Below the pieces are notes generated by a model. That model ran no database searches, had not been told where the DNA came from, and worked only from the letters and a program-made list of their open reading frames with translations. Below are positions 10,487 to 30,720 of a stretch of DNA of 64,000 nt, one piece after another. Position numbers and translations under genes: made by a program. Source of the stretch: Candidatus Bathyarchaeota archaeon (GTDB taxonomy: Archaea; Thermoproteota; Bathyarchaeia; Bathyarchaeales; Bathycorpusculaceae); contig OY970176.1 in the NCBI GenBank assembly GCA_963707955.1, forward strand, positions 2,240,001 to 2,304,000. The letters are read 5' to 3'. The number at the start of each line of letters is the position of its first letter. The first letter of the stretch is position 1.

Positions 10487-10487
10487 G

Positions 10488-12556: not shown

Positions 12557-13300
12557 TCATAGTTTTGATTTGTAGGTAGGATCAGTGGCAGTTCGACGTC
12601 CTTGTAACTCGAGAAGATCGGGATACAATTCAATGAATTCTGCAAACTTGAAGACTCCATAAGATTTGGGGTCGAAAGCTGGGTCAAGGCGTCTTAGAGC
12701 AGTGCTTAATGCTGCTCCCTTCACGAACCCATTTTCATCTTGCGCGGCCTTTATTGCCCTTATTAAGAGTTCTCGCCCTTGTTCCTTTGTTGGTTCTGCG
12801 TTCGTTGCCTCTGCAGAACCTTGAACATTCTCTGATTGAATCTCCCCTTTTTCGACCGCGACCTCTCCTATGAGATTTTCGAGTAACAAGAACTCGTCAC
12901 ACGCATTAACGAATGCTGGAGGAGTAACTCTGCGACCCACGCCTATAACTCTCAAACCTTCTTCGCGAATTCGTGTGGCCAATCCTGTAAAGTCACTGTC
13001 AGAACTCACCAGCACAAATACGTCGACATCCTTCGAATGAAGAATGTCCATTGCGTCGATTGTCATGGCTGAATCAGTGATGTTTTTACCCGATGAGAAC
13101 CTAAACTGCTGAATCGGTCTTATAGCGAACTCCCTGAAAACCGAAATCCATCCTTGCAAGTTCGGTGACGTCCAATCACCATATGATCGTTTGATAATCA
13201 CACGCCCATATCGTGCGCACGCATCAAGTATTGCCTTAACGTAATCCTTTGAAGTATTATCGGCGTCGAAGAGTACCGCCAAGTTGCTCTTTTCGGTCAT
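12557..13300 (-). CDS. NYN-domain (LabA/DUF88 PIN-like) RNase with C-terminal OST-HTH/LOTUS
   Basis: AVLFDADN, YGDW, GKN.TD..M.IDAMD, LVSSDSDFT.LA.RIRE.G, DP.FDP.SYG..KF. Confidence 0.92.
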   Translation of the reverse strand: MTEKSNLAVLFDADNTSKDYVKAILDACARYGRVIIKRSYGDWTSPNLQGWISVFREFAIRPIQQFRFSSGKNITDSAMTIDAMDILHSKDVDVFVLVSSDSDFTGLATRIREEGLRVIGVGRRVTPPAFVNACDEFLLLENLIGEVAVEKGEIQSENVQGSAEATNAEPTKEQGRELLIRAIKAAQDENGFVKGAALSTALRRLDPAFDPKSYGVFKFAEFIELYPDLLELQGRRTATDPTYKSKL

Positions 13301-13521
13301 TGCGAAGTCTTTGCCAACGGAGTCAGAAGTCTGACTTGCACCCAACATTCCTCACCTGAAAGATAGTGAGCACAGTTGGCTAATAAGTCTAGTTTTTTAT
13401 GCTGGTTATGTTCTTTCAATTGCCTAAAATAATAGTATGAGCAATCCATCCTAGAATTCATATCCGCGCCACCACAGCAAACTTCAGTACCAGGTTGGGT
13501 CAAATAACTTAACAGTATCCC

Positions 13522-14013
13522 ATGAGAGAGTACAAGATAAACTATGATGTGGCAAACCTCAAGCTTAACAGCCTAGCATGGGAGACAGCGCGATTTCTCG
13601 AAGACCTTGGATACGAAGCTTTAGCGATTCCAGCCAGCTCACCGTACGATAAAAAGAAGAATTTCGGGGATATGTCGCACAAGCACGCTGCCGTTGCAGC
13701 TGGCCTGGGCAGATTTGGAATGAACAATCTGGTCCTGACACCAGAGTACGGGCCTTACGTACGTTTTGTCACAGTCATAACAAGCGCCGCGCTCAGACCT
13801 GACAGACCCTTAACCGAAGACATTTGCCTTCTGGACAAGTGCCTAAAATGCGTCAAGGCCTGTCCCGCCGGAGCCCTGGAAAACCCAGTCTACGATGCTG
13901 CTGAAGGATGGCTGATAGACAAGGAGAAATGCCACGAATACATTCACATCGTCTCTGGCAGAGACGTATGTGGCCTCTGCATCAAAGCGTGCCCAATAAC
14001 GAGACCACAATGA
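13522..14013 (+). pseudogene. QueG-like Fe-S protein, 3' part
   Basis: SHKHAAVAAGLG.FG.N.L..TPEYGP.VR, C..C.KC..ACP, CG.CIKACP. Confidence 0.88.
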
Positions 14014-14059
14014 CCCGCGATCAAAACCCAACGACTAAGGGCCATTAAGGATAGAGAAC

Positions 14060-14125
14060 ATGACCAGAGATCCACGCTGAAGCCGACGTTAGGACTGCTC
14101 AACGCCACGGCCTAAAGCCTAGGAT
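14060..14125 (+). pseudogene. Degraded 5' stub of an APC-family permease
   Basis: TLKPTLGLLNATA.SLG matches the APC N-terminal LK..LGL..A.A..(V/L)G pattern; ends at CGCGCGCTA. Confidence 0.55.
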
Positions 14126-14565
14126 CGCGCGCTAAATGAGGATTAGCAGAAAAGCATGGACTTTTGTAACAATTTTGCTGTAACAATCTGTCACAAACTC
14201 AGTTTTTCTAGAATTCCCAGAATTCCAATCAACACGATGGACTTTTTGAGGTGTCGTGACACTTCACAAAAAAGAGACCAGTTCTCAAAGAATTAAGCTC
14301 TTTTTTGCGTTAACACATGGAACTATTCTCAAAACTGCATTAACGTAGCGCGCTACCATGGTTTAAGAGTGCAGAACATGCCTGAAATTAGGTGCGGTCT
14401 TCTGGAAATAGAACGATTAGGATTTACAACATGTAAGCGCGCGCGCTCAAGACTATTACGAGTTTTTTTAAATTGCCGCCCGCGCTAAATGGACCTATAA
14501 TGGCGACATAAAATCTTTTATTACTAGATCGTGAATCAGCTAAGCAACTTCACAGAGGACAGTCA

Positions 14566-15492
14566 TTGTCAAAAGTCAAGAAAACAAAGGAAGACGCGCC
14601 TCGACGTTGTGACTACATCATTACCAACTACAGAAAGGCGCGTCAAAGCATTGACCAATCAAAGCTGAAGTTGAACGACACGTCTAGAGAACTCGATGAA
14701 GTGATCAACAAGTATAGCATGCTGAACAAGTTTTGCGGCCAAGTCTCAGCGATGCCAACCGGTTCTTTCTCGCAATTCCAAAAGGCGAACCTCGAAAGCC
14801 TTCTTGTTTCTGGAGCTGACAACGCGACAATGGCCTTAGGAAGGGCGAGGGAGATCGAGAAGACCATTCCACATTTTTCTGCAGTAGTTTCTTCGGGAAG
14901 CGCACTTGTTCTTGGCATTGCTGAAATCGCAAGAAACATTGCTGAAAGCTCTGAGGACACAAGGAAACTGGTCGCAGGATGGAATCTGCCCACGCCCAGG
15001 GAAAATCAGAATGCGCTCACTTCGAGGGTTCATGAGATTGAGCCACGTCTTGAGGTTAAACTCAACGGAGCTTGGCAAACCTTGTTCGACAGAACCAAAG
15101 TTGATAGGTTTCGTCAATCTTCAAGCTCGATGAGAGAGCTAATCTCTGACACTTTACAGGTTTTGGCTCCAGATTCAGGAATACAAGAGACTTCTTGGTT
15201 TTCCCAAAACGGTCCCAACAGAAAGCCGACTCAAGCAGAGCGTGCCTACTATGCCATTGTTGGAAAGAATCCAGCGGTTGAACAAAAGGATCTGAAGTCA
15301 GCAGCAGACCTAGCCAAGAATATTCGCGAATCATATGAAAAGCTCAACAAATATACCCACGAAAGAACAAGCCATCCAGAGATAAAACCTGAGGATCTCG
15401 AAAGCCAATTGGTCAGCGTTTTCAATGAGACGCAGATCTACCTTCTGGAAATCCTCAGAATGCGAGAGAAGTTTTTCAGAGACCTAATATAG
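14566..15492 (+). CDS. Hypothetical protein with C-terminal pPIWI-associating nuclease-like (HEPN-like) domain
   Basis: R(Q)...SMREL....L..LAPD..I....W.......KPT...R..Y and LNKYTH. Confidence 0.65.
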   Translation: MSKVKKTKEDAPRRCDYIITNYRKARQSIDQSKLKLNDTSRELDEVINKYSMLNKFCGQVSAMPTGSFSQFQKANLESLLVSGADNATMALGRAREIEKTIPHFSAVVSSGSALVLGIAEIARNIAESSEDTRKLVAGWNLPTPRENQNALTSRVHEIEPRLEVKLNGAWQTLFDRTKVDRFRQSSSSMRELISDTLQVLAPDSGIQETSWFSQNGPNRKPTQAERAYYAIVGKNPAVEQKDLKSAADLAKNIRESYEKLNKYTHERTSHPEIKPEDLESQLVSVFNETQIYLLEILRMREKFFRDLI

Positions 15493-15604
15493 ACTTTCGC
15501 CCGATGTCTTTGTCATTGGCTTACGTCTGTACTGATATCCCGAACCATTTCTCATAAGCATAGAAAACTTGGATGACTGCGATTGTCTTGGCTTTGTTGA
15601 AGAG

Positions 15605-16258
15605 CTATCTTAATAGAGGTTGGATCAGTGCTCTCACTTTTTCCAGCGCACTCACGACTCCACCTACGGTAGCGACGCATTTTAGCACATTCCACGCTGT
15701 TCTGAGTATACTTCGGTCTGGATTTGATTTCAATAGCTGGCTCTTAATGGTTTCAATTTCAGCCTGATAATTCAACTTCTCTTCGTCAGAGAGTCTATCG
15801 GTTTGTCGAATTTCTTCCCCAAGCAAATCGAGACTCCGGTAAAGATTACTGTACTGATTATACACGTAATTGCCATCCCCGATCACTGTAACCCCTTGAA
15901 TGTTGGTTATGTTGATACCTGTTAGCTTCGGAGTCCGTTGGAATTTGGAAGGGCCTTCAAAATGATTAATGCCTTTATCAGCTATTCTATAAGAGACGTT
16001 CTCTGCCCTTATGGTTGCGCTACCTCTAGTTATCGGGAACGTTTTCCTTTCTTCATTTACCCAACCGCTCTGAATTAGATAGTAGAGGTTACTAGCTACC
16101 TCTTGTTCGTTGAGTCCCTTTTCCTTCAATACTTGTTTTATCTCTCTCCTTCTAACGCCCGCTCCACTCACACTTCTGGATTTTTTGTACTTTGAGTACA
16201 GATATTCCAGGATAAGTTCTCTTATTTCATCGCTAGTTCTGTCTAGGGCAAGTGACAT
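15605..16258 (-). CDS. Hypothetical protein: winged-helix N-terminus, N/G-rich linker, helical C-terminus
   Basis: IL.YLY...NL.YL...GWV...YRI..KGI wHTH pattern; 217-aa clean ORF. Confidence 0.7.
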   Translation of the reverse strand: MSLALDRTSDEIRELILEYLYSKYKKSRSVSGAGVRRREIKQVLKEKGLNEQEVASNLYYLIQSGWVNEERKTFPITRGSATIRAENVSYRIADKGINHFEGPSKFQRTPKLTGINITNIQGVTVIGDGNYVYNQYSNLYRSLDLLGEEIRQTDRLSDEEKLNYQAEIETIKSQLLKSNPDRSILRTAWNVLKCVATVGGVVSALEKVRALIQPLLR

Positions 16259-16448
16259 TTACCAGATCCGTTCCTACCAATAATGCAACTTTGCGATGGG
16301 TCTAAAATAGATAGCGCATCCTAAATCTAGATGAATGATCAACATCGTAACAGCCGGGTTTGCGACCATCATCGTATAGCGCCAATTTGATTTGGTAAAA
16401 AGTAATAAAGGGATATAAAGGCAAATCTGAAAATGACCCTGAGGCGGC

Positions 16449-17534
16449 ATGAAGTACTGGGACTGGGTAGGACGATCTCACGAAGGAATGTCCAGAGATT
16501 TCCCTAATGGTGAGGAGGGCTATAGGGCTGTTTGTTTCATTCGATCCTTTTTTGAGGGAATCGGAATCGAGGAACTACCCCGAAACCATCCGCTTCACAA
16601 CAGACTGCGTATAGGCATGGCTCCGAACTACTCATGGCTAGTACAATATGCACGAAAACTGCTCACTGCCAGTCAACTGTCAGGGTTCGAGGAGATTGCA
16701 AGAAGATTTGCAGATCCTCGGGAATACTTGGCTGCAAATGCTGAGACTGAGGTTGCTCTAAAGATGTACTTAGAAGGACTGGATGTTTCTTTTTCCAGAG
16801 TGGCCTCTCAGCCTACGTGTGACCTGACTGTGAATTTGGGTAGCGAAGTGATTAGAATTGAGGTAACTTCCCTGAATCCGCCTGATGAGGAAACGCGCGT
16901 TTGGACATTGGTCGACCAAGTTAACACCTTAGGTTTCATGAAAGAAGTCGCAACAGGTGGATTCGTAAGCAGGGTTCCATCGCCCAAAATACTTGAAGAC
17001 GTACTAAAACAAGTGAATCGGGCCATTGACGAGACTAAAGATTCGCGCAAGGTTAAGAAGTTCAATTACGAGGGAGTAGCGACAATTTATCTCGCTCCAC
17101 ATGATATGGTAGACCAGATGCCCGAGGATTCCAGACACACTCTTTGCTTTGTTCAACCTCCCCGCAAGCTTATAGAGGAGCAAATAAAAAGAAAGATAGA
17201 AGAGAAAAACAAACAACTAAAACACCACAATGAACCTGGGATACTTTTTCTTTATACGCAGATGATACGCAGACAATCAGTTTCAAAGTTATTTGAACAA
17301 CCAATGGATCATGTCTCAGTTGCATTGGCCTCTTATTCAAAGCTGTTGGGATTAGTTTTGACAGTTCCACATATGGGGATTGAAGTCGCAAACGCTGTGA
17401 AGACGGAAGACCTGAAAAAAGAGCGCAGAGGGGGTAAGCTCTTTCTGGAGACTGAAGCTGGTTCCTACCAGTACGAAAGTTCGTTACTCTGGAAGAATTT
17501 GCATGCTGACCGAGGTTTTCCAGAGAACTTGTAA
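16449..17534 (+). CDS. Hypothetical protein, possible PD-(D/E)XK fold
   Basis: 361-aa ORF; E..VA...CDL.V......IEVT motif. Confidence 0.65.
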   Translation: MKYWDWVGRSHEGMSRDFPNGEEGYRAVCFIRSFFEGIGIEELPRNHPLHNRLRIGMAPNYSWLVQYARKLLTASQLSGFEEIARRFADPREYLAANAETEVALKMYLEGLDVSFSRVASQPTCDLTVNLGSEVIRIEVTSLNPPDEETRVWTLVDQVNTLGFMKEVATGGFVSRVPSPKILEDVLKQVNRAIDETKDSRKVKKFNYEGVATIYLAPHDMVDQMPEDSRHTLCFVQPPRKLIEEQIKRKIEEKNKQLKHHNEPGILFLYTQMIRRQSVSKLFEQPMDHVSVALASYSKLLGLVLTVPHMGIEVANAVKTEDLKKERRGGKLFLETEAGSYQYESSLLWKNLHADRGFPENL

Positions 17535-17765
17535 CCGCGCTAGAGAACTATTCCTCAAACCTAAGGAAACTTTCGCCTCTTCAAGAGTCTTTTGCCGGGT
17601 TGAGGACGACTAGCTGAATTCCTATCGCCAATGGTTTGTAGCGCGCGCTGGTCGTACGCTATTTTTCTTCGTGCGCGCAGTTTTTGATTCAATACTTTTC
17701 GATAGGGAACCGACTAAATCAATGTTTGAGTTTGATATTCAAAAAAGGTCCAAGAACAGCGCGCA

Positions 17766-18173
17766 TTACCTTAGGAATCTGAAGATTTTCTTATACCAAG
17801 GCGTCATTCTATCTTGGATGATTTCACAGAGTTGATTTGCAAGAATCTGCGGGTTGTTGAAGACATCTTCATTGCGGCGTCGGAGCACCTTTATGCCCCG
17901 CCGCGCTAGGTTTGAGTCTCTTTGCCTGTCGTATCTTCTCCGGTCATCATGTATGCTACCGTCAATTTCTAAGCCTAATCGCAGTGTTGGACAGTAAAAG
18001 TCAAGGATGTACCCATATGCCACGAACTGTCGGTGGAAGATATGATTTGGAAAATTAGGCATCACTTGACCTTTTATGATTTCCCACATGCGCGCCTCTG
18101 CTGGTTTCGGATTGTGTCGCATTTCATAGGCTTTTTCGAACTTGAAAGGCGCACTTCTTCGACGGCGATACAT
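17766..18173 (-). CDS. DUF559/Vsr-like endonuclease-domain protein
   Basis: AE..MW, F.RQ....YILDFYC....L.LEIDGSIH......D..RD..L...GI.VLR. Confidence 0.9.
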   Translation of the reverse strand: MYRRRRSAPFKFEKAYEMRHNPKPAEARMWEIIKGQVMPNFPNHIFHRQFVAYGYILDFYCPTLRLGLEIDGSIHDDRRRYDRQRDSNLARRGIKVLRRRNEDVFNNPQILANQLCEIIQDRMTPWYKKIFRFLR

Positions 18174-18269
18174 ACCAACCAGGCTACTATTTAATCTCTG
18201 CTAGCGCGATAAGGATTATGAAAACCCTGTAAAGATTGAAACTCAATTGAAAACCACGCAAGTTGCCTT

Positions 18270-18399
18270 TTTTGTTTGGGTTTGAGCTGGGATAAAACTT
18301 TACCCTTTTTCTCTCTCCTGCTAACTCTCTCGCTCACTCTCTCTAAAAAAACAAACAAATAAAAAACACACACACGCAGACAACAAACAAAAACACACA
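18270..18399 (+). repeat. Box + G-poor tract element, copy 1
   Basis: GGATAAAACTTTACCC at 18290-18305 followed by CT-rich then CA-rich tract; fused directly to truncated cas1. Confidence 0.85.
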
Positions 18400-19360
18400 G
18401 AAGTCAGAGACAAAAACGGGCAGACTGAACGTTATCCGCATTTTGAGAAGGAAATAGGCGAAGCTGTCCTGAAGAGCGGAAGTTACGTTTCCGTTGACGC
18501 CCTAATTGACCTTGCACTCTGGAACATAGACACCTACATTATGACTAGGAAAAACAGAGTTGTAGCAGTTTTGAAGAACCTTGAAGATGACTCTCACGTT
18601 AAAACTAGGCTCTGTCAATATGAGGCTCTCAGCAACGGTAAAGGAATTGCTATAGCTAAACAGTTTTTAATCTCCAAGATTGAAGGTCAAAACTTCGTTT
18701 TTAAGAAATATGGTCTGAAACGTCTCAATGTTGATGCTAGGCATCAAATCGGTAATATTCAATTTGAAAGTCTAGAATCAGCTAGGAAAAAGCTTGTCTT
18801 AATTGAGAGCCATAATGCTAAGCTGTATTTCAACCAGATTTTCAACTTGTTTCCTGAAAAGATTAGACCTGAAAAGAGGACAGGCTATGCGGCGTAAGAT
18901 GGCTTGAACAACGTCTTTAATTTTGCGTATTATGTTTTGAAGTGCAGAGTTCATAAGACATTGTTGAAAGCTAAGCTTGAACCATACCTAGGATTCCTTC
19001 ACTCTGTTCAAGTTGGAAAGCCTAGTCTAGTATGCGACTTTCAAGAACTTTACCGCTACTTGATAGATGACTACCTGATAGAACGGTGTCAGAAATTGCG
19101 TAAGAAGGATTTTGTGCTTGTTACAGATTTTATGATGCGTCTCAAAATGGGAAAGAGGATTCACCTATGTGAATTTGAAACTAATGATTTAGCTGAAGGT
19201 TTGAATTTGCTTTTTGAACGGCATAGTTGAGATTCCAAGAATCAGGCATGGCAGTAGGCAGACTCTTGACACGTTGATTAATGAAGAGGCTTACTTGTTT
19301 GCAAAGTTTCTGAGACATGAACGGGAAACATGGGCTCCAAGAATAGCGAGCCTAGCCTGA
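18400..19360 (+). pseudogene. cas1: Solo CRISPR-associated endonuclease Cas1 (5'-truncated, TAA at 18895-18897, frameshift near 19222)
   Basis: VRDKNG.TERYP.FE.EIGE..LKSG, R..QY, IE...A..YF, N..FNFAY..L, L.PYLGFLH, SLVCDFQE.YR..IDD; no cas2 or array nearby. Confidence 0.9.
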
Positions 19361-19514
19361 TGGAAATAAGTAGTGATATCCCGATGTGGGACTTGGCGTG
19401 CGCTAATTTGTCAGAGTCCTCTGATCTGCGCTATTCTGTAAAGTCTGCTTGCTGGGAGTAAGAATACAAAGAGTTTTATCCTCATATCTTCAACTAAGTT
19501 GGCGGGATTGATAT

Positions 19515-20174
19515 TTGGAAAAACTTCAAACAGTAAGGCCTGAACGTACTGAAGAATTCAGGAAAAGATACCATGTGCTTCTTAACATCTCTGACGAGAA
19601 AATCAATGATATACTGAAACTGGTTGATTACGGACGACTTCTGCCTGATATCTGGAAAGATAAGCGAGAGGAGGAATTCAACCGGAAGATAGCTAAGATC
19701 TGTCAATTTGATGACCAAAAAGCAAGTTTGGTCATGTCATCGATAATTGGCATTTTGCGTAATGTGAAGAAAAAAGAGTTTGTTTTGAAAAGAGAATCAG
19801 ACCTGCTGAAATTGAAGTTTAACAAAACTGAGATTGAAAGATACGGAAAATTAGTGAACACATTGAGGAAAAAAGGGGGTCACGATGAAGTCAGAGAAGT
19901 CGATCAATGGCAATCTCTGACTGCGGAAGTCTTGCCATCTTTGGCTTCTATTGAATGCTCGTTTGACATACGGTGCGGAATCAAGAAAGACCAAGTATCG
20001 ACGTATATCCCTATTGTATTGTTAAAACTCAGAGCGACGAATGAAGGAGGGAAATCCTCAGAGTTTGTATTCCAAACTGACATTGGCACCCTAAGACGTA
20101 TAACTCGCGTTTTGACCGAAACATATAGAAACTCCAGTGTACTTAGGAAATATACACTCAAACGTGAGGACTGA
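19515..20174 (+). CDS. COMMD-like protein (helical N-domain plus C-terminal COMM-like domain)
   Basis: LPSLASIECSFDIR...PIVLLKL.......SEFVFQ.....L..I...L follows the COMM-domain pattern; ~220 aa as in COMMDs. Confidence 0.6.
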   Translation: MEKLQTVRPERTEEFRKRYHVLLNISDEKINDILKLVDYGRLLPDIWKDKREEEFNRKIAKICQFDDQKASLVMSSIIGILRNVKKKEFVLKRESDLLKLKFNKTEIERYGKLVNTLRKKGGHDEVREVDQWQSLTAEVLPSLASIECSFDIRCGIKKDQVSTYIPIVLLKLRATNEGGKSSEFVFQTDIGTLRRITRVLTETYRNSSVLRKYTLKRED

Positions 20175-20182
20175 AACTGACA

Positions 20183-20656
20183 ATGCGTCTCAGTCAACGT
20201 GTAGTACTTGAAGAACCGCAACCTGTCGCAGAGCATCAGAGATGTTTTCTAAGTGGAGATAGATACATCATGGATGCAGATCTCTTGGATAATTCCAAGC
20301 GTCGCGCGAGACTAAGACGCGTGCGTGAAGTATGGAAGCCAAATCATTGGTTCCCTGATGAAAGAATATACTTGGTGCATTCAGTCGCTCCAAACTTCTA
20401 TCGACGTGGCGATACGACATGGTCTATTGTTTTAGATGAAGAAAGCGAGACTGACTTAACTGAAACAATTCAAAAGAAGCTGAGAATCAGAAAGACAGAG
20501 GCAGCAGCAATAAAGGATAAACTTTACGAGGAAATTGACCAAATAGCTCAGGCTCGGAACGTTGAACGGTTTTCCTCAAACGAAAAAGACCAGCTAGTAT
20601 TAGCAATAATCAAGACCGCTGACAGTTTGTTGAAGAAGACACTTGATACAAAGTAG
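20183..20656 (+). CDS. Hypothetical protein
   Basis: 157-aa ORF, 8 bp from upstream and 14 bp from downstream gene. Confidence 0.7.
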   Translation: MRLSQRVVLEEPQPVAEHQRCFLSGDRYIMDADLLDNSKRRARLRRVREVWKPNHWFPDERIYLVHSVAPNFYRRGDTTWSIVLDEESETDLTETIQKKLRIRKTEAAAIKDKLYEEIDQIAQARNVERFSSNEKDQLVLAIIKTADSLLKKTLDTK

Positions 20657-20670
20657 TCGGAGGCTGGCAC

Positions 20671-21753
20671 TTGTCATCCTCGGAAGACAAGCAGTCATCC
20701 TTTGCCTATCTTCTCTTGTCATTCCTCGAAGGAAAATTGTTAGAGAAGAATATTGAGATTCCCAAATCTTCTCGTGACATTCTTAATGTAGCAGTGGATG
20801 AGGCTGTCAACCAATATGTCACTATGCATGGCAAAGATATGACGATTGAACCTTTGTCACTTTTTGAGACGGTTTTCATGCTAGGTTTGGAATTCCGCCG
20901 TAAAAATCCTCCAATCATTCTTGTTCGCACCTATCAAGTTGGTTTTGAATCAAAAAAGAAGTCTCCTTATTCAATTGTAGTAGTGCAACCACGTGTTCCT
21001 TCTCAGGATCAGTTTAGAGAAAAGGTTACCAATAATGGAAAACTTTGTATCATTAAAGAAGAAGCGGCTGAAGACATAATGCAGCAACTTTCAGAGATTG
21101 CTGAGAAGCTTGAAGAAAGAGTTGATTTTGTCTGTTTTCCTGAACTATCATTCTTTGATAAGAAAGAAACCTACGATGTTTTGAGCAAAATTGGAAAGGA
21201 AAAAGATTGTTTCATAATAGCAGGATCTTTTCACGATGAAAAGACAGAATCTAATATCTCTGTGATTTTTTCACCCCAAGGAAACTGGTTCAATCAGAGC
21301 AAAATCTTCAGATCCAAAAACGAAGGTATCAATGAGAAACCAATAGAATACTTGAACGAGTTTGATTTCCTTGAAGGAAGATTTTGTGTGTTGATTTGTA
21401 TCGATTCAGAAAGAGAGGATATCAGACAGATACTCAAAGAGAGACTGAAAGACCGCAAGTGCCCTGTGCTAGTCTTCAACCCATCACACACCGAACACCC
21501 AAAAAGGGCGACGGAGCTGCTAGCAAACAATCTCATGGTGCTGATTTCTGCGGCAATAGTTTTCTGTAATACTAACCAGAAAGGGGGTTCAACGGTACTT
21601 GTTCCTTTTGTTGAACTCAAAGATAGAAAATTCCGACTCTTCGAACTACCTCCTTCCGCCAAGACTGAGATTGGAAACGCCCAAGTTGATGTTAACCTCC
21701 TTATGGAAAATAGATTGTCAAAACAAAATGGTGTGGTTTCCATGACGAGATAA
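20671..21753 (+). CDS. Carbon-nitrogen hydrolase (nitrilase-fold) protein with N-terminal extension
   Basis: Catalytic triad motifs FVCFPEL, Q.K, VLICID; IIAGS; F.NT...GGS. Confidence 0.82.
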   Translation: MSSSEDKQSSFAYLLLSFLEGKLLEKNIEIPKSSRDILNVAVDEAVNQYVTMHGKDMTIEPLSLFETVFMLGLEFRRKNPPIILVRTYQVGFESKKKSPYSIVVVQPRVPSQDQFREKVTNNGKLCIIKEEAAEDIMQQLSEIAEKLEERVDFVCFPELSFFDKKETYDVLSKIGKEKDCFIIAGSFHDEKTESNISVIFSPQGNWFNQSKIFRSKNEGINEKPIEYLNEFDFLEGRFCVLICIDSEREDIRQILKERLKDRKCPVLVFNPSHTEHPKRATELLANNLMVLISAAIVFCNTNQKGGSTVLVPFVELKDRKFRLFELPPSAKTEIGNAQVDVNLLMENRLSKQNGVVSMTR

Positions 21754-21811
21754 GACTGCGAGCCGTCAAGGAAAGGATTTGCGCCCGCGCAAAATCACAG
21801 ACTGAACAGTG

Positions 21812-21940
21812 TTATGTGTTTTTCGTTTTATGCGTGTGTGTGTTTTTTATTTGTTTGTTTTTTTAGAGAGAGAGTGAGTGAGAGAGTTAGTAGGAGAGAG
21901 AGAAAAGGACAAAACTTTACCCCCCCACACACACAACAAC
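21812..21940 (-). repeat. Box + G-poor tract element, copy 2 (inverted, near-identical tract to copy 1)
   Basis: Reverse complement of ~21832-21908 matches ~18304-18378 with few differences; box GGACAAAACTTTACCC at 21907-21922. Confidence 0.88.
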
Positions 21941-21984
21941 TTTGGTTCGTGGCTTTTTGGGGTGCCTCGCTGGTCGCTCGGCAC

Positions 21985-22371
21985 CTTTTTCTAAGCAGCA
22001 GGATGACCAGCTATCCTCTTTGAGGCAAAAAACAGACGCTGGTACGCTGATAAAAGAGGTGGGGCATGAGGCACAGCAAATAACCCTACCCACGCTCAAT
22101 AGGAGAATAATATACCCGTTAGAGGCTCTAAAGGGTATATTTCGAGACGTTTTCAGCTCAATTTGATGGCGAATAGAGAATACTCCAAAGCTACTGGAAA
22201 ATCATTAAGAAAACAGCGGTTTACGACAAGGCTCTTGGCAAATTTACAGACGAAGACTCACGCAAAGAAGGTTTCGAAGACATAGCCGAATGCAAGCAGT
22301 TCTGGAAGGAAAACATTGACGCGTGGAATCCCGACAGAATCGTCTGGATTCATGAACATGAATTAGTCTAA
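21985..22371 (+). pseudogene. Degraded ASCH-domain gene
   Basis: C-terminal VYDKALGKFTDEDSRKEGFEDIAECKQFWKENIDAWNPDRIVWIHEHELV-stop; 5' part broken. Confidence 0.6.
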
Positions 22372-22397
22372 GCACACGCCGATTACACTTCATACGC

Positions 22398-23249
22398 TTA
22401 TTCCGTGACCTCGGGTGTATCCGCGAGCACTTTCGAGAAGGAGTTTGCTATCGAATTGACTACCTCTTGGTTAGTGGAAACAATCCCTGCTTCCCAAGAA
22501 ACACCAGCCGATGAATCTGCAAAGAAATTCATTGAAGATATAATAGCTATTGCACGGTCAACTACGATTAATTTCGCGTGTACTTTGGCATCATAAAATA
22601 ATGAAATGCCTTCCTGTTTGAGTTTTGAGTGATAATCCTGCCTTTTCTTAAGATATTCAGGATGCTTGTCCTCTGGAGGGCGAGTAATAATTTGAACGTT
22701 GATTCCGTTTTTACTCGCTTCTATCAACGTATTGCTGAGGTCACAATCTTGAATGTAAGGATTTGCTGTGAGAACATCGAATTTGGCGTGAGAGATTAAT
22801 TCTTTTGAAAAATCATCTAGATGTCTTCGCTCGAGGAAGAAATGTTCATGCTCAATGGAAAAATCAAGATTCCTAATTTCTTTCCATTGCGCTATCCATT
22901 TGACGAGTTCGGTCCTCGGATTATACAACTCCGAATAAATCTGAAAACGTTCGTCAGATATGTAATACTTGCTCTCAGCGTTAGTGTTGCTCTCGATTTT
23001 ATGAATGTCTTCTGAGGAGATAAGTTCGAAAAGTGCCCTGTTCAATGATTTCTTGCCCAAACCAGTTACTTCTTGGATTTCTCTCCAAGTCAAGGGTCTG
23101 CCATTTTGGACAATCGCTCTGATGACTAAACCTTGCCATGACCGAGGTCTCCACTTTGGTCTGGCTGTCGCTTCGCTCTCCAAAGTTGGCTTCTCGGATT
23201 GTTTAATCATTCTGCGGAGCAAGAATAACTCCTGTAACTCTATCATCAT
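22398..23249 (-). CDS. HTH + phospholipase D-family (HKD) nuclease-like protein
   Basis: VHAKLIVVD...AIISSMNF......EAG; N-terminal HTH (LTWREIQEVTGL). Confidence 0.85.
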   Translation of the reverse strand: MMIELQELFLLRRMIKQSEKPTLESEATARPKWRPRSWQGLVIRAIVQNGRPLTWREIQEVTGLGKKSLNRALFELISSEDIHKIESNTNAESKYYISDERFQIYSELYNPRTELVKWIAQWKEIRNLDFSIEHEHFFLERRHLDDFSKELISHAKFDVLTANPYIQDCDLSNTLIEASKNGINVQIITRPPEDKHPEYLKKRQDYHSKLKQEGISLFYDAKVHAKLIVVDRAIAIISSMNFFADSSAGVSWEAGIVSTNQEVVNSIANSFSKVLADTPEVTE

Positions 23250-23411
23250 ACGATTTCTTATAACAATAATGCAGTCATAATCTATAGCACAACTAACGGA
23301 TGCATCGCTTCAAAAATACCTTGGCACCTCTATCATTTTCTTGATCATAAAATGCCCTTCTTTTTGGTATGCCTTGAACATAAGTAAGTAGGCTCTCAAT
23401 GAGAATTAGCA

Positions 23412-23452
23412 ATGTGGTGGTTGTTGGGGTAAAGTTTTACCCAAACCAAACC
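23412..23452 (+). repeat. Box element, copy 3 (short)
   Basis: tgtggtggttgttg GGGTAAAGTTTTACCC aaaccaaacc; box at 23427-23442. Confidence 0.75.
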
Positions 23453-23689
23453 TGACGACGATGTGCTACGTGGAAACAGAATGGCTTCTGAAAGGCAGTA
23501 TACACGATTCAGAGCATAGTGGTTGATCTCTGCAAAAGAGGCTATTACGGGAAATCAGATCATAATAGGGTAGGGATATAGGTAGTATCGGAATCGAGTA
23601 TACGGCCCCCTTTGCGCAGAAGGATTGCGAGAGATGTGTTTGTTCTTTCTGTTTCATAATAGAACAGATTGTTTTGATTGTTATCGAGA

Positions 23690-24775
23690 TCATGAATCGG
23701 CAAGTTTCGTCTCAAGCAGTTCCAGTGTCTTGCTTATGCCGAATGAGCCCTTAATGGGGACTATTCGCTTTTCTTTGGAGAGTGCGCCCCTCAGCTTTGC
23801 TTGAGGAACCAATCTTCGGATTGCTTTTGTAGGCGCTGTAGAGATAACAAAAAGCTGGAGAGACCTATTTGCCACCAGAGACTCATTGATTATTGTATTA
23901 ATCTTCTCGTGCCTGAATGCAAAGCCGACGATGATGCAAATATCCGTCTGCGTGAGTTTATTTTTGAATCTGGCAAACATATCGCCGTACGGATATGGGT
24001 TTTCAGTGTTCGGCTTCCTGCCAAAAAGAACAAACTCGTTGTTTCGGTAAAGTATGGTGTTTGGCGGAACTGGAAACTGTACGGTTATCACCTCAATCTT
24101 TTCTGTCTGTTTGTTCCATACCCAGTTCAGGGAACCATGAAGCTTCGTCAGTGTATATTTTTCGCTGGATGTGGGGGTCACCTGTGGCTCCAAAGTATGT
24201 TCTAGGACCGCATACCTCAGAGCATGCCCAGACTGATCGCAATAATCCTCTATCACGTGATCATAGTTGGTCGTGAATATCTCGAATTCAGGTTTGTTCG
24301 CCATATACGTTTTCATCAAGGAAAAGAAGCGACCGTAATAGTCTTTGATATCATCGAAAAACCCTTGTTTTCGCTGATAATTTGAGAAAGTAGCGGCAGT
24401 TATTTTTTCTTCAAGAGCTCTTGCTAGTCTAACTATCTTATGCCATTCAATTGTACCTTGAAGAGGGTAAGGATGACTATCTTTTCCGAAATCTACAGAC
24501 TCTTTGTACCGTTCAAAGAAATTGTGCATGGAAGAGGCTGTCGAGAGCCGATCTATCTCAAACAGCGAATCGAGAATCTCAACAATATGTTCAATGTCTC
24601 TCACACCGTGCAATTGGCGGAGGGACGACAAGAAACTTCTCTCTTCATCCTTCAAAGTTTTTGAGAAATTTTCCATAAAAGCCTTCGTAGCAGGACAACC
24701 AAACTTTGCAGAAACCCCTGCTCCCAAGAATATTATGATGCTTTTCGAGTGTCCATTATCGACCCTAAGTGACAT
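23690..24775 (-). CDS. SIR2-like (SIR2_2) NAD-dependent protein
   Basis: FLGAGVS...G.P, IFTTNYD, KLHGSLNW, IVGF.FR...IN. Confidence 0.9.
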   Translation of the reverse strand: MSLRVDNGHSKSIIIFLGAGVSAKFGCPATKAFMENFSKTLKDEERSFLSSLRQLHGVRDIEHIVEILDSLFEIDRLSTASSMHNFFERYKESVDFGKDSHPYPLQGTIEWHKIVRLARALEEKITAATFSNYQRKQGFFDDIKDYYGRFFSLMKTYMANKPEFEIFTTNYDHVIEDYCDQSGHALRYAVLEHTLEPQVTPTSSEKYTLTKLHGSLNWVWNKQTEKIEVITVQFPVPPNTILYRNNEFVLFGRKPNTENPYPYGDMFARFKNKLTQTDICIIVGFAFRHEKINTIINESLVANRSLQLFVISTAPTKAIRRLVPQAKLRGALSKEKRIVPIKGSFGISKTLELLETKLADS

Positions 24776-24848
24776 GTGACTAGATTGCTACGGAGACAAG
24801 AAAACGCTTTCGGTTTGTGTTTCTTGGCAGAAATAGTATCTATTTGCA

Positions 24849-26489
24849 TCAGCTCTCCTGAAAGAAGAAAAGATTATCATTCCGAATAGAATCTCTCAAT
24901 TTAACCAGCAGATTAAAGTGCTCGTGAAGCTTCGTTTCTTCTGCTTCTTTTTCTACTGTTTCTATATCTTTTTTCATTGGGAATCCTTCCATTCCTATAT
25001 CCACAGGATATTCTTTCCTTCGGAATTTTGCTATTTTTTGAACACAAATATTGAAGAATCTGATTTCCGACAATAAACGCATGGCAAGATCGAGCACTTT
25101 GTTGTCATAGACTGACTTTATCCAACCCTCAGTTTCGTCTGATTTCGACAATAGTCTCAATTCAATGAAACCAGACGGAGATGACGCAAACTGAAAATGT
25201 CTGATTTCATTTATCTTGGCACTTGTAATGAATAATTCTTTGGTAACGTCGTTGAAAAACAGTCGAAAATCGTGGCAAGGGAAAAACAGTTTATCCCTGC
25301 TCAGTGATGCGACTAAACCCAGTTTGATTCTTTTAGGTATTGACTTTCCGTAATACTCACTTTCAAACACTGAGTTGTTCTGATACAATTTCCTGAAATG
25401 GGAAGGCAGAAACAAAGATTTTTCTAATTCCACACATTTCTTGAAAAGCTTTCTCAAGCTTTTTTCAGCTTTCTGCAGATCTATTTCATCGAAATTATCA
25501 AGAGGAAATGTTATACTGAAATCAAAGTTCTTTGGCAATTTGATTCTTGTCAAGCTAGGGGCCTTTCCGCAAATCTGTTTTAGGGTAGAAAACTCGGATA
25601 TGTTCTTCGTTTTGTATTCGCCTTGCAGCATGAAATCGTCTAACCTGAATTTCTCGATTTTTGGTATGAACGAAAAAACGCCCGAGCTACCTGAGGGTCG
25701 ACCCCAATCTTGCAGTTCATCGGCCAAAATGAGGACAGACAATATTTTCTCTTTTGATGCTTTGATTTTCCTTGTGCCGCGGGAGCTATGAAAAGCAATG
25801 GCTCTGATTACGTCCTCATATTTCTTAATTAGATTCGCATCTTGTTTTAGATAAGATGTGAACTCTAATGCACTCAATATGCCATGGTCAAATTCCTTAG
25901 TTTTGTATTCCTGCAGGATCTCTGGCGGCAAAGATGAGAATTTCTCGATATCAAATCGCAATTTCTTTTCCGCATTCAATAATGCTTCCGAAGCTATATT
26001 GTAACAGTCTTTTATCGCATTTATAGAGAATCGGATGCTCTGGTCTATGTCAGCCAAAGGATATGCGACATCATGGAAAAGGGAAGCCAGGAGCAACTTA
26101 TCCAGATCTTGCGGAGACAAATTGAAAGGGGATTTTTGGCCAATAGCTCTGCCCAATAATGCAACGCGTATCGTATGATTTAGATGATCACGGTAAAATT
26201 TCCTTGCTAACCCTCGAGTTGATATTGTTATTTGCTCCAAACTGGTTAACGCATTACCTAATCGTTTCGACCTCATTCTTCCTTTCGAACTGCAGTCTGC
26301 ACCTAAGATCTTGAGAATCAAATTACTCATTAAGGAGGCTGCTTTCGTTTTCTGCATCTCATAATCAGTTATTTCATTCCAATCTTCTATTTCAGAGCAG
26401 ATGTCTTGGGGCCATTTCCCTAGCTCTATTATCTTTTTGTCGAAAAGCAAACTGACTACGAACGGGTTTTGCTTCGATATGTCTTCCAT
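24849..26489 (-). CDS. HD-domain metal-dependent phosphohydrolase with long C-terminal extension
   Basis: RDH..HT.RV, FHDVAYP, DHG.LSA, AIAFH, LADELQDWGR. Confidence 0.85.
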   Translation of the reverse strand: MEDISKQNPFVVSLLFDKKIIELGKWPQDICSEIEDWNEITDYEMQKTKAASLMSNLILKILGADCSSKGRMRSKRLGNALTSLEQITISTRGLARKFYRDHLNHTIRVALLGRAIGQKSPFNLSPQDLDKLLLASLFHDVAYPLADIDQSIRFSINAIKDCYNIASEALLNAEKKLRFDIEKFSSLPPEILQEYKTKEFDHGILSALEFTSYLKQDANLIKKYEDVIRAIAFHSSRGTRKIKASKEKILSVLILADELQDWGRPSGSSGVFSFIPKIEKFRLDDFMLQGEYKTKNISEFSTLKQICGKAPSLTRIKLPKNFDFSITFPLDNFDEIDLQKAEKSLRKLFKKCVELEKSLFLPSHFRKLYQNNSVFESEYYGKSIPKRIKLGLVASLSRDKLFFPCHDFRLFFNDVTKELFITSAKINEIRHFQFASSPSGFIELRLLSKSDETEGWIKSVYDNKVLDLAMRLLSEIRFFNICVQKIAKFRRKEYPVDIGMEGFPMKKDIETVEKEAEETKLHEHFNLLVKLRDSIRNDNLFFFQES

Positions 26490-26563
26490 TGAGTTGTACT
26501 ATAGATTCACTAGTGTTATATATAATGATTCGAAAGCCTATATTCAGAGGCAGGATGAAATCT

Positions 26564-26923
26564 ATGGGACATCGAAGGGAAGTTTTCAGACCCAGATCTA
26601 CAAAGACGATAAAGAATAGAATTCAACAATCACTCAAAGAGGGGAGGTTTGCAGAAGCTGCCAACATTGCTGCTTTCAGTTATTCATCCAGGCCTATTGC
26701 AGATGATTTCGCCATTTCAATGTTGGCCACAGCCGAAGCTATCACCCTGGGCCGACAAATAAACTGGAAAAAGATTACTGAAGATCTAGTTTCTGCAGGT
26801 ATATCTATCGCTGAACGGAAACTCAATTCGAGAGTCAACAGAAAACGCCTCTCAATAGTCTTTGAATCCATAGCCCGTTCGGTTGAACGCGCTAGAAAAG
26901 AGGAGAGTGCGCGAGATGAGTGA
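26564..26923 (+). CDS. Hypothetical protein (start MGHRR; alternative start 26555)
   Basis: First gene of a tightly coupled three-gene operon ending in QueC. Confidence 0.65.
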   Translation: MGHRREVFRPRSTKTIKNRIQQSLKEGRFAEAANIAAFSYSSRPIADDFAISMLATAEAITLGRQINWKKITEDLVSAGISIAERKLNSRVNRKRLSIVFESIARSVERARKEESARDE

Positions 26924-27266
26924 TCTTGACATTCTCCTTCTGAAAAGCGTAGCTAAAGAAATCATCGAGCATGTTTGGAAAACGGAATTCTACAACGATG
27001 CTGAGAATTATATTTTATACAAAGATTCTAGACGGAAAAAAAACCCTAGGTCGGAGGATGAGATAAGACAGATCGATTCCGAATTGAGTAGATTAAAGAA
27101 CGATCTAATTGACGAAATAGTTGAAGAGTTCAATGCGAACGGGATAAACTCCATGGAGGATATTTCAAAATCCTATGGAAAAGTCCGGGAAATATGTTAC
27201 AAGAAATTTGAAGAGCATAGGAGGCGACTTTGGGATGTCGTTAAACCTGGATTCCCTTCTAAGTGA
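26916..27266 (+). CDS. Hypothetical helical protein
   Basis: Overlaps both neighbours (translational coupling). Confidence 0.7.
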   Translation: MSDLDILLLKSVAKEIIEHVWKTEFYNDAENYILYKDSRRKKNPRSEDEIRQIDSELSRLKNDLIDEIVEEFNANGINSMEDISKSYGKVREICYKKFEEHRRRLWDVVKPGFPSK

Positions 27267-28533
27267 ACATCTGGCAGAAACATCCCCCTTAAGACAATTT
27301 TTCTGGCGAAAAGAAAGGAAAGCAGACGGAATTAGTTATCCTATACCTCTCAAAGAACAATATGTAGATTTCTTGAGACTTGTTTTGGGGCTTCATATAA
27401 TAGAAATCAGACATCTTGAATACGTCAAAGAACTGAGAATGGAAACAAGCTATCCGGATGATTTTCTTTCTATAGTCAATGATTGCGAGTCACTTTTCTA
27501 TTTGTTGGCAAATATGAAGGTAAACCTCAAGATTATTCCAAGCAGTTCCAGACATAGCTGGAGAAAAATCGATGAAGGTACTTTATATAAAGATATCGTT
27601 CCATTTTCCGGTGGATTAGACAGTCTATGTGGCGCTCTTAGTTCATCAAAACATTCAAGAATCATTCTGTCTCACTGCAAGACGAATCTGGTCATCTTTG
27701 GCAAGGTTTTGAAACTTTCAGACATGAATTCTTTCAAAAGGTCCGTTTTATATTGTATGGATGCTACGTCCAAAACACCGATAGCTGGAGTATCCGATAC
27801 GAGGGGATTACTTTTCCTTTCATTCGCTTATGCAATTGCTGCTTCTTTGGACCTAAGATACGTGACATTTTGCGAAAATGGCTCGCAGATGCTTGACGTG
27901 ATGCTAGGTTCATTAGTCTATCCGAATAAACCCGCCACGAAGAATACAAACCCAGTCTATATTGACAAAATTGAGAGCATTTTCAGCAACTTCTATGATA
28001 AAACCTTCAAAATCGAATGCCCTTTCAAGGACATGACAAAGGCTGAAATGCTTCTTCCATTAAAAAATGAAATAAGATTCGAAGATACTTACTCATGTTT
28101 CAGCCCAAGGGGCAGGGCTGCAATGTGCGGGGAATGCTATAACTGCTTCGTAAGAAGACTATCCTTATTGGCAATAAACGTCGCAGAGAAAAATAATGTG
28201 TATGAAGTAAATCCTTTCACGGTTACGCATGAAATACATCACGAGGGAAGCGCTCCGTCAACGAACATCCTATTTCATTTCTTAAGGTTCTATAGCCAAA
28301 TACTAATGAGGAATTCCTCTTCGATGAATGAGATAGAAGTAAGCTCAAGAGGCTATTTTAGAGACCCCTTGGATTTGGCTACTCGATTCGCCGAAGATGT
28401 ATTTCTAGGTGTCAATGGACTATTAGGCGCGATTGGTGAAAACCAGTTGAACGCACTAGGAAAAAAAGCAAGAGAGTTGCTTGATCAGCTTGACAAGAAA
28501 ACCCTGAGAGAAAGAAAAGAGGAATTGACCTGA
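27235..28533 (+). CDS. QueC-like (QatC-type) PP-loop ATPase
   Basis: FSGGLDS, RG.LF...A, ENG, T.P, PF...TK.EM, TYSC, CG.C..C.VRR; extended N- and C-termini unlike housekeeping QueC. Confidence 0.88.
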   Translation: MSLNLDSLLSEHLAETSPLRQFFWRKERKADGISYPIPLKEQYVDFLRLVLGLHIIEIRHLEYVKELRMETSYPDDFLSIVNDCESLFYLLANMKVNLKIIPSSSRHSWRKIDEGTLYKDIVPFSGGLDSLCGALSSSKHSRIILSHCKTNLVIFGKVLKLSDMNSFKRSVLYCMDATSKTPIAGVSDTRGLLFLSFAYAIAASLDLRYVTFCENGSQMLDVMLGSLVYPNKPATKNTNPVYIDKIESIFSNFYDKTFKIECPFKDMTKAEMLLPLKNEIRFEDTYSCFSPRGRAAMCGECYNCFVRRLSLLAINVAEKNNVYEVNPFTVTHEIHHEGSAPSTNILFHFLRFYSQILMRNSSSMNEIEVSSRGYFRDPLDLATRFAEDVFLGVNGLLGAIGENQLNALGKKARELLDQLDKKTLRERKEELT

Positions 28534-28808
28534 TTGGCACCTAGGGGATAATACGCCAAACGAACGTGGCGCACTATCACTTAGAATGTCCTTTCAAGAG
28601 TTCTCGCGCGCGCTATTTGCAATCTTTCGGTTCTAGGAGGTATTTGGGAATTGGTATGGCAGATGCTCTAGATAAAATACTTCAATATGTGGACGTAACT
28701 GTGAAAGAAATCTGTCTTCGTTCATTTCTGGATCTGGATTCACCAGAGCTTTGATTAGCTGTTCTTTATGAAAGTCCTTTAGATTTGGATCTCTCTTGTA
28801 GCGTGCGC

Positions 28809-30474: not shown

Positions 30475-30522
30475 TAATACACCCAGAGTAACTAGGGTCG
30501 ACAGGCCTTTTATGCTTTAAAC

Positions 30523-30693: not shown

Positions 30694-30720
30694 CGTACAT
30701 ACGGACCGCATAAATCGGCG

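Follow-up and report, generated by a model that had tools for sequence, protein, structure and literature searches.

The 64,000-nt stretch of DNA analysed here (the window, G000:C1:2240001-2304000) belongs to the single-contig 2.35-Mb genome of a Candidatus Bathyarchaeota archaeon (G000), and contains at positions 18290-21922 a unit in which inverted repeats enclose a cas1 gene and a three-gene operon. We consider it probable (roughly 0.72) that this unit is a dead member, shortened by internal deletion, of a family of casposon-like transposons of Bathyarchaeia that do without a family B DNA polymerase (PolB), and that the operon is its cargo. An earlier note on the same DNA had likened the unit to a minimal casposon, made up of terminal inverted repeats (TIRs), Cas1 and cargo, and lacking PolB. 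The layout recurs in four further elements, and this part of the description is borne out, but the copy in the window is no functional minimal element. What remains is a fossil, and its value lies in the lead that it gives to the family, and in the example that it provides of decay with surviving cargo.

The two ends of the unit match each other closely. A repeat search of the window aligned the tracts 18303-18392 and 21819-21908 as inverted arms of 90 nt with 77% identity, around a core of 66 nt (18325-18390 and 21819-21884) with 88% identity. When the arms are aligned with MAFFT, the first ~78 nt differ by 2 substitutions and 3 gap columns (~93% identity), and the similarity tapers off over the next ~25 nt, to give ~100 nt in all. 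According to blastn (with the low-complexity filter off), the arms align with each other over 125 nt at 83.2% identity (E 2.7e-29), and are reciprocal best matches within the 2.35-Mb genome. The runner-up match of the left arm extends over 55 nt at 82% (E 1.4e-7), that of the right arm over 162 nt at 74% (E 2.8e-22). The claim that near-identical, inward-facing repeats of ~75 bp surround cas1 and the operon is thus confirmed. We place the left TIR, a G-poor tract of T5, CT, AAAC and CA runs, at 18306-18400 (plus strand), with the best-kept part from 18306 to ~18383, and the right TIR, its reverse complement, at 21815-21906 (minus strand). Both arms are of low complexity and poor in G (CT, CA and AAAC runs), yet they share a specific and non-periodic order. 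An alternating GC motif, GCGCCCGCGC, lies at 21783-21792, just internal to the right TIR.

On their outer sides, the arms are directly adjoined by boxes of 16 bp, GGATAAAACTTTACCC at 18290-18305 and GGACAAAACTTTACCC at 21907-21922, to which no strand is assigned. The boxes agree at 15 of 16 positions when read as direct repeats, and at 11 of 16 when read as inverted repeats; the left box may be a target site or one half of a target-site duplication (TSD). Because the box is nearly palindromic, it had been merged into the inverted repeat in the earlier note, and the statement there that no target duplication was evident has to be revised, since a 16-bp direct repeat flanks the arms. The further statement that the two repeat copies form the only such pair stands after a scan of all pairs of boxes up to 25 kb apart in G000, among which the window unit is the only one with inverted inner flanks. 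No tRNA or known RNA was found at the ends of the unit by a tRNA scan and an Rfam search of the window at gathering thresholds.

The cas1 gene of the unit (18400-19360, plus strand) belongs to a solo family of the mobile genetic element (MGE) type, and is a dead gene. Positions 64-180 and 188-270 of the Pfam model Cas_Cas1 are matched by two adjoining open reading frames (ORFs). Alignment with five intact homologues shows that ~31 N-terminal residues are absent, and that the left arm adjoins cas1 at EVRDKNG with the region of the start codon gone, as the earlier note had described. An in-frame TAA (18895-18897) stands where all five intact homologues have a tyrosine (KAYDG), and a +1 frameshift between 19227 and 19229 displaces the last 43 codons, which are in frame in the homologues. 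Despite truncation, stop and frameshift, the catalytic E/H/D/E motifs are still legible, and E164, H229, D241 and E244 are invariant in all six aligned Cas1 sequences. The truncated gene begins 95 nt from the left box, as against 2.8-4.1 kb in the intact elements, and ~3 kb of the interior is therefore gone from the window copy. Judged by the intact relatives, the missing part held genes for a winged helix-turn-helix (wHTH) protein and for small primase/Rep-like proteins. With its cas1 gene broken in three ways and this interior missing, the unit no longer functions as a minimal element.

An alternative genetic code for the in-frame stops can be dismissed, since the three broken genes use TAA, TGA and TAG, and the cas1 TAA takes the place of a conserved tyrosine. 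A ketopantoate reductase gene (30721-31668, minus strand) has an in-frame TGA at 31048-31050, and an Lhr-type helicase gene (8780-11753, plus strand) is split by a frameshift into parts of 568 and 460 aa, as against 956 aa for the intact protein in a relative. Together with the TAA and TAG of cas1 remnants, this makes three kinds of stop codon, so that decay of the genes or errors of sequencing, and not recoding, are the cause.

Further elements of the same build were sought among the loci L029-L108 (11 duplicate or unrelated loci excluded) and in all of G000, as pairs of boxes at most 25 kb apart with inverted inner flanks. The scan returned exactly five elements, in five genomes, each enclosing a cas1 gene of one family. 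The cas1 gene is intact in L040 (6.26 kb, TIR of 125 nt with a score of 125), L067 (5.08 kb, TIR of 96 nt) and L039 (4.85 kb, TIR of 116 nt), where the frames are open over 338-352 aa, and broken in L078 (6.70 kb, TIR of 114 nt) and in the window unit, which is the smallest (3.63 kb) and has more diverged TIRs (90 nt, score 64). The TIRs of the four others are almost perfect. The TIR sequences vary among the elements and have a common style: they are poor in G, and start with CCAAAC repeats or with T-runs followed by CT-runs, before turning rich in CA and AAAC. Boxes of 16 bp flank all five elements and agree at 15-16 of 16 positions as direct repeats; they are near-palindromic and conform to the consensus found across the genome. 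The earlier note had suggested a search for the same unit at other loci. The layout was found in four other genomes. The interior of the window unit has no DNA match in 40 relatives, and among the related loci no near-identical copies extend beyond cas1 and its neighbours.

The gene content of these elements sets them apart from PolB-encoding casposons. Among the 39 ORFs (at least 55 aa) of the four other elements, there are Pfam matches to Cas1, HTH-type, Schlafen/AlbA_2, GOLD-domain and COMM_HN plus COMM_domain proteins, and none of the 39 matches a polymerase, recombinase, Cas2 or Cas4 family; other genes take up the 4.9-6.7 kb of these elements. Likewise, when 43 loci were searched up to 10 kb from cas1 for ORFs of 450 aa or more, no polymerase was detected among the 55 ORFs obtained, of which 13 have no Pfam match at all. 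The window ORFs near cas1 do not match Cas2 or Cas4 families either (no genome-wide cas2 search was made). In the same 43 loci, cas1 is accompanied by a protein family of ~150-190 aa in 28 and 15 loci and by a family of ~126 aa in 17. A wHTH protein of ~200 aa is encoded immediately upstream of cas1, and a P-loop protein of ~300 aa occurs in seven of the 43 loci. Clustering of the neighbours identified no conserved gene downstream of the cas1 stop codon.

The neighbour of ~150-190 aa may be primase/Rep-like, to judge by a structure model (pLDDT 79.5). The best VIA-align match is an uncharacterised protein (2atz, Z 8.1), followed by the SV40 T-antigen origin-binding domain (6.2), AsfvPrimPol (6.1), RepB' (5.9), the LigD/NHEJ polymerases (5.7-5.8) and PrimPol (5.6), with archaeo-eukaryotic primases (AEPs) at Z 5.4-6.1. 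The best AEP in Foldseek has E 0.024, and the Pfam AEP-like match (E 0.0019) is below the cut-off. As regards the DxD and sxH motifs, one aspartate alone is invariant, and the histidine is replaced by arginine in one subgroup.

Full-length Cas1 proteins of the relatives are of two kinds. One scores ~250 bits on the Pfam model and is encoded near contig ends; the other, to which the window Cas1 belongs, scores ~155-175 bits. A profile scan of the contigs of species-representative genomes located the second kind at 65 loci, 62 of them titled Bathyarchaeia or Bathyarchaeota, and a set of 5.8 billion proteins contains 2212 members of the family at E <= 1e-10. In a quick IQ-TREE phylogeny, which contained no casposases, the window pseudogene nests within the MGE-type family in a clade of 13 rows with SH-aLRT 100, and eight CRISPR-type Cas1 proteins of relatives are split off by long branches. 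The nearest neighbour of the window Cas1 is L055 (77% identity), apart from the copy of the same genus, L033; the window and same-genus copies lie in different subclades. Since the same Cas1 family is present on two IMG/VR contigs (L107 and L108), beside genes for the tail tube, neck and tail, as well as on a contig of 12.7 kb (L030, G001:C30) with a gene for a fusellovirus VP2-like capsid protein, it travels with mobile DNA. No boxes were found on these three contigs. The idea that L030 is a circular virus was rejected, as a terminal overlap is absent. Several kinds of Bathyarchaeia virus may use this Cas1, perhaps as an integrase; passages on Cas1, Cas4, integrases and casposons in a study of Bathyarchaeia viruses (PMC10848311) describe no virus-encoded Cas1.

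The repeats of the window unit are part of a genome-wide family. The window contains eight boxes where 0.31 would be expected, a number that none of 100 shuffles reached. G000 as a whole has 29 boxes at up to one mismatch, compared with a single site for a control with the reversed pattern, and 41 at up to two mismatches. The box has the arms GGGTTTGG and CCAAACCC, and the extended consensus either enlarges the palindrome, as (GGTTTGGGTTTGG)-box-(CCAAACCCAAACC), or has T-runs and CT-runs after the box. The exact box occurs in 20-41 copies in seven near-complete genomes of the same genus, and in 0-6 copies elsewhere. The genome also holds four Pfam-level fragments of cas1 and no complete gene. 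By tblastn, the C-terminal tail of cas1 is present in 11 copies, which together with an N-terminal fragment at 227778 makes 12 remnants, clustered with the boxes in variable islands. Of the 41 boxes, 15 have a cas1 remnant at a distance of up to 3 kb, whereas 2000 random placements gave 1.2 on average and 7 at most; conversely, nine of the 12 remnants have a box in that range. Boxes are also dense around cas1 in the related loci L035, L042 and L043 (6-9 boxes per 21 kb), and the outer flanks of boxes begin with further TIR-like tracts.

An element of this family consists of a 16-bp near-palindromic box, a G-poor TIR of ~100 nt, the genes, an inverted TIR and a second box. The intact relatives (4.9-6.3 kb) encode a full-length catalytic Cas1, the upstream wHTH protein, one or two small primase/Rep-like proteins and a further small protein, and leave room for changing cargo from cas1 to the right end. 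We propose that the Cas1 homologue would act as the integrase, in the manner of a casposase, and would link the ends of the TIRs to the box at a staggered cut, leaving a box on both sides. Insertion at the box with its duplication is suggested by the direct repeats, the outer TIR-like tracts and the density of boxes around cas1. Reuse of the same box would stack elements head to tail, as box-element-box-element, and could in this way build up a variable, defence-rich island; tandem insertion into a single target would leave just such outer TIR-like tracts and 6-9 boxes per 21 kb. In the window copy, the stretch from the left TIR to codon ~32 of cas1 is gone, and cas1 has been broken further. 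Since no intact cas1 is left anywhere in G000, the window unit is no longer mobile. The three intact cargo ORFs have probably been kept for their usefulness to the host, possibly in defence.

The two closest relatives (G007 and G001) are syntenic with G000 up to window position 14131 and lack the whole island of 14-40 kb. The homology with G007 resumes at the box at 23427, after a strain-specific block of 9.3 kb (14132-23426); in the other close relative, ~3 kb past a shared ferredoxin-type gene, DNA matching the window at ~40.2 kb follows. Because synteny breaks and resumes at these points (14131, 23427 and ~40.2 kb), the region of 14-40 kb as a whole is a variable island. A repeat of ~200 nt (14126-14332) begins exactly at the synteny break with G007 and G001, has a copy at 921499-921705 of G000, and is multi-copy in G003, G009 and G004. 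Possibly, a different mobile element ends here. The window stretch is present in five sequencing runs of two studies, in one of them at a 0.05 share of words.

Several observations weigh against the interpretation of the unit as a copy of a Cas1-driven transposon. No clean empty site was found for L039 and L067 (30 relatives each, plus three loci), where only replacements or unrelated contexts were seen. Compared with five relatives, the L067 locus has a block of 7.7 kb in place of ~170 bp, without boxes at the borders, and at the site in G428 that is orthologous to the right flank of L039, a degenerate box is kept, and the DNA on its left is unrelated. In the window, the island is strain-specific as a whole, and not the unit alone. 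Contigs of four runs of one study, which miss rare forms, contain no excision or inversion joints; they break at both arms. The earlier note had stated that its proposal would fall if the unit were never found moved, inverted or absent as a block in relatives. The outcome is neither a clean pass nor a clean failure: the island is absent from the two closest relatives, and joints were not seen.

The boxes themselves are also ambiguous. The direct orientation clearly beats the inverted one in only two of the five elements (the window unit and L078, 15 against 11 of 16), and in L039 and L067 the inverted reading, shifted by one base, reaches 15 of 16. Instead of a duplication, the box could thus be the extreme end of the TIR, or a motif that the host already had. 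Its sequence tracks the host lineage and not the Cas1 subclade. Among solved structures, the family profile scores highest against a CRISPR Cas1 from Archaeoglobus (4n06, 126 bits), ahead of the only casposase with a solved structure, that of Methanosarcina (6opm, 93), and of 7cr6 (86), and for this reason we do not claim membership in the casposase clade. The primase/Rep-like call depends on middling fold scores and on a Pfam match below threshold, and all TIRs are of low complexity, which makes both assembly and alignment less certain. Judging by the sequences, the elements would work like a casposon, and are at most candidate members of the casposon superfamily.

A different explanation is that the boxes, with their low-complexity flanks, are host regulatory or structural repeats dispersed over accessory DNA, such as bidirectional promoters, terminators or hairpins resembling repetitive extragenic palindromic (REP) sequences, that cas1 is all that is left of a vanished CRISPR-Cas adaptation module, and that the inverted pair is coincidental. 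This would fit the 29-41 boxes in the genome, most of which are not in TIR-bearing pairs, their location between convergent, divergent and tandem genes alike, and the restriction of the exact box to the genus; for cas1 itself, it would fit the NCBIfam result, which is the generic cas1 equivalog above the cut-off. Coincidence, however, would hardly place inverted repeats of 90-125 nt exactly inside box pairs in five elements of five genomes, each time around the same Cas1 family. A CRISPR origin is also difficult to reconcile with 12 cas1 remnants of one family in a genome in which a naive repeat scan found no CRISPR array (both candidates being coding repeats of 69 nt), with conserved neighbours of the MGE type, with the lack of cas2 and cas4 among the 39 ORFs, and with the separate long branch of the CRISPR-type Cas1 proteins of relatives. 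The orientation of the boxes does not follow neighbouring gene starts in L035, L042 and L043, and for this reason a promoter was rejected as the sole explanation of the box. We therefore regard this explanation as unlikely.

Alternatively, the boxes could be att or attC-like sites of a tyrosine, serine or other recombinase encoded elsewhere, which would shuffle cassettes, with Cas1 as mere cargo or in another role. Boxes delimit very different contents, including metabolic genes, the strain difference ends at a box (window 23427), boxes are numerous although cas1 is dead in G000, and different cargo adjoins cas1 from case to case, with the stop codon of the gene as a sharp border, all of which a cassette array would explain. 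Yet recombinase families are missing from the 39 ORFs of the four elements and from the window ORFs between 12 and 31 kb, long TIRs are typical of transposons and not of att sites, and the only gene that all five elements share is a cas1 with a complete set of catalytic motifs. A cassette array is therefore improbable, and we rate it about as low as host repeats. An invertible segment, in which 3.4 kb would flip between the inward-facing repeats and switch the expression of three genes that run in one direction, is very improbable, as there is no invertase gene nearby, the contigs of four runs show no joints (weak evidence, being from contigs only), and the same architecture elsewhere holds other genes together with cas1.

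If the unit is a decayed transposon, the three genes between cas1 and the right TIR are its cargo. Gene A (19515-20174, plus strand, 219 aa), gene B (20183-20656, plus strand, 157 aa) and gene C (20671-21753, plus strand, 360 aa) are intact ORFs. The earlier note had described them as a COMMD-like, a hypothetical and a nitrilase gene. The nitrilase assignment of C is in line with weak matches, whereas the COMM-like nature of A stays below thresholds and is a lead only. Gene A has no match in Pfam, NCBIfam, PADLOC or PHROGs. In the Atlas, 25 of 30 feature matches fall into clusters without a common Pfam family (best 0.90-0.92), and two clusters with COMM_domain in part of their members (23% and 45%) score 0.89 and 0.81, against a bar of 0.9. 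Comparison with eukaryotic COMMD models gives TM scores of 0.29-0.42. The cargo of the L078 element includes a COMM_HN plus COMM_domain protein above the Pfam cut-offs, and a direct comparison of this protein with gene A gives E 0.13.

No function is assigned to gene B, which has a Rho_N match below threshold (E 0.0012, 19.1 bits, cut-off 24.9) and no match in NCBIfam, PADLOC or PHROGs. Gene C, for which a Glu-Lys-Cys triad is predicted, resembles carbon-nitrogen hydrolases (nitrilase/amidohydrolase), with weak support from the PADLOC models RT-nitrilase (E 3.8e-7) and Drt1a (E 1.2e-6) and from NCBIfam lnt (E 1.2e-4, far below the cut-off). The set of 5.8 billion proteins has 13 homologues of C, one of them named 'predicted amidohydrolase', and three of 400 other Bathyarchaeia genomes encode homologues with ~30% identity, without homologues of A or B alongside. 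Apart from these three, A, B and C have no match in the related loci examined. The window is rich in defence-type genes between 12.5 and 30.5 kb, and to judge from the sequences, a defence role of the cargo is plausible. The defence cluster (12557-30474) comprises genes for an NYN plus OST-HTH protein, a pPIWI-associated nuclease, a PDC-M14B-like protein, a DUF559 protein, a PLD/DrmC-like protein, a SIR2 protein, an HD protein, a QatC/QueC-like protein and an HNH nuclease. No Argonaute to go with the pPIWI-associated nuclease was found among the ORFs that were compared with Pfam.

Other parts of the window and of the genome bear traces of the same kind. Solo C-terminal remnants of cas1 are found in the window at 32424-32543 (minus strand), at 44302-44415 (plus strand) and, between the boxes at 53587 and 59640, both of which have G-poor inner flanks, at 55576-55707 (minus strand). 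Elsewhere in G000, tails lie at 77172-77297, 80699-80791, 206268-206390, 393360-393476, 863032-863157, 2026868-2026981 and 2034515-2034574. The tails represent the last ~40 codons, with ragged 5' ends and a 3' boundary that is sharp at the stop codon, and are far commoner than other pieces of the gene. Short cas1 matches (less than 100 codons) in other genomes likewise comprise the C-terminal end only (six of six in G419, three of three in G421). Most tails are located 0.6-2.5 kb upstream of a box, and resemble surviving right halves of elements, the left halves having been lost more often.

Two box-bounded regions can be singled out. The pair at 53587-59655 has inward-facing G-poor tracts without detectable mutual homology, and encloses a cas1 tail together with NosD-like, old-yellow-enzyme and CMD-family genes; it is probably an older and more decayed element with metabolic cargo. 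The region 82412-84845 of G000, between two boxes, contains what is left of a replication-type module, with genes for a partial P-loop protein and two small primase/Rep-like proteins. They share 77-92% identity with their counterparts in L033, an element of the same genus, and a cas1 tail lies 1.6 kb upstream. This region is another decayed member of the family.

The box that follows the unit in the array, GGGTAAAGTTTTACCC at 23427-23442 (no strand assigned), is joined to a conserved segment of ~180 nt. The combined stretch (23427-23616) recurs at 394036-394220 of G000 (86%) and in at least six relatives (70-79%), and nothing in Rfam matches it. The stretch could encode a small RNA or represent the conserved end of an element. 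Alternating GC tracts, GCGCGCGC, number 464 in the genome, as against 25 expected, and occur in the window at 14127-14134, 17641-17648, 21783-21792, 30514-30522 and 30690-30698. They are found within 200 nt of 16 of the 41 boxes (5.7 expected), at inner ends of TIRs, at three of the four points where cas1 tails break off raggedly, and where synteny with G007 is interrupted. Recombination could be frequent at these tracts, or a protein could use them as a subterminal site.

The machinery of CRISPR adaptation is accepted to descend from casposons. Casposons of family 2 are roughly 8-20 kb in size and are inserted at the end of a tRNA or elongation factor 2 (EF-2) gene, whereas the elements described here are 4.9-6.7 kb in size and would target a repeated near-palindromic box. 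Like casposons, they have TIRs at both ends (~78 nt at ~93% in the window unit, 96-125 nt in the four others) and a catalytic Cas1 inside, with E/H/D/E invariant in six of six sequences and intact genes in L039, L040 and L067. They differ in having no PolB (none of the 39 and none of the 55 ORFs) and no HNH gene, in carrying small primase/Rep-like proteins and sometimes a P-loop ATPase of ~300 aa, and in a Cas1 of ~340-350 aa without the extra C-terminal HTH domain. The family 2 casposons AciBoo-C1 of Aciduliprofundum boonei and MetMaz-C1 of Methanosarcina mazei, as portrayed in passages of PMC4046053 and PMC4779613, are alike in the combination of TIRs and flanking direct repeats (TSDs of 14-15 bp, compared with a box of 16 bp here that may be one) and in a Cas1 homologue with a full catalytic set as the only candidate integrase. 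They would also be alike in site preference and in tandem insertions that share a repeat, and are alike in decayed copies and solo ends within islands; tandem casposons with one common TSD are reported for Methanosarcina in parts of PMC4779613.

Family 1 casposons of Thaumarchaeota (Nitrosopumilus; PMC6563490) are similar in being compact and in residing in an archaeon of the TACK group, and their casposase, according to a passage of PMC8464041, is devoid of an HTH domain, as is the Cas1 described here. They encode a protein-primed PolB, whereas the present elements encode none. Casposon islands have been defined by the co-occurrence of cas1 and polB, as stated in sections of PMC4046053, and a 2023 review (PMC9939771) describes the four casposon families through such islands. 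A search of the literature (supplements excluded) found no description of PolB-less Cas1 elements with TIRs in Bathyarchaeia. The Cas1-solo group 1 of Methanomicrobiales, as characterised in a part of PMC4046053, has an incomplete catalytic site, is vertically inherited and is confined to one order. The present family does not fit this description, as the catalytic residues are invariant, genomes contain many copies or remnants, and the window and same-genus copies lie in different subclades.

CRISPR arrays, built by Cas1-Cas2 integration, are alike in combining an integrase of the Cas1 family with a short, partly palindromic repeat that flanks each insert. The inserts of the present family are, in contrast, of kilobase size, carry genes and have TIRs of their own, the repeats are 1-14 kb apart, and cas2, a leader and effector genes were not seen. 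An arrangement of cas1 beside cas2 or cas4 and an array was not found in a naive array scan and among the ORFs near cas1. Defective or MITE-like (miniature inverted-repeat transposable element) derivatives of transposons are similar in that the ends are kept while the interior and the transposase gene are deleted or decayed, although the window copy retains most of the cas1 ORF and a three-gene cargo, and no evidence points to its mobilisation in trans. A more far-reaching idea is that a large new family of PolB-less Cas1 transposons inserts into a short near-palindromic repeat and duplicates it, with a Cas1 at least as CRISPR-like as casposase-like, and so creates arrays with whole elements as 'spacers'. 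The elements would then be both a living analogue of the proposed step from casposon to CRISPR array and a builder of defence islands. We put this forward tentatively, and consider it less likely than not.

If the design of TIRs, direct repeats and Cas1 has been kept, while a primase/Rep-type module was swapped in and the box is targeted, then self-synthesis by PolB would be inessential to Cas1-driven transposition. The family would also offer a natural case of a Cas1 that uses and restores a short repeat over and over, which would bear directly on the origin of the CRISPR repeat, and biochemists would gain small Cas1 integrases whose 16-bp target is defined. Its activity would account for the assembly of variable islands rich in defence genes in a class of archaea that is abundant but uncultured.

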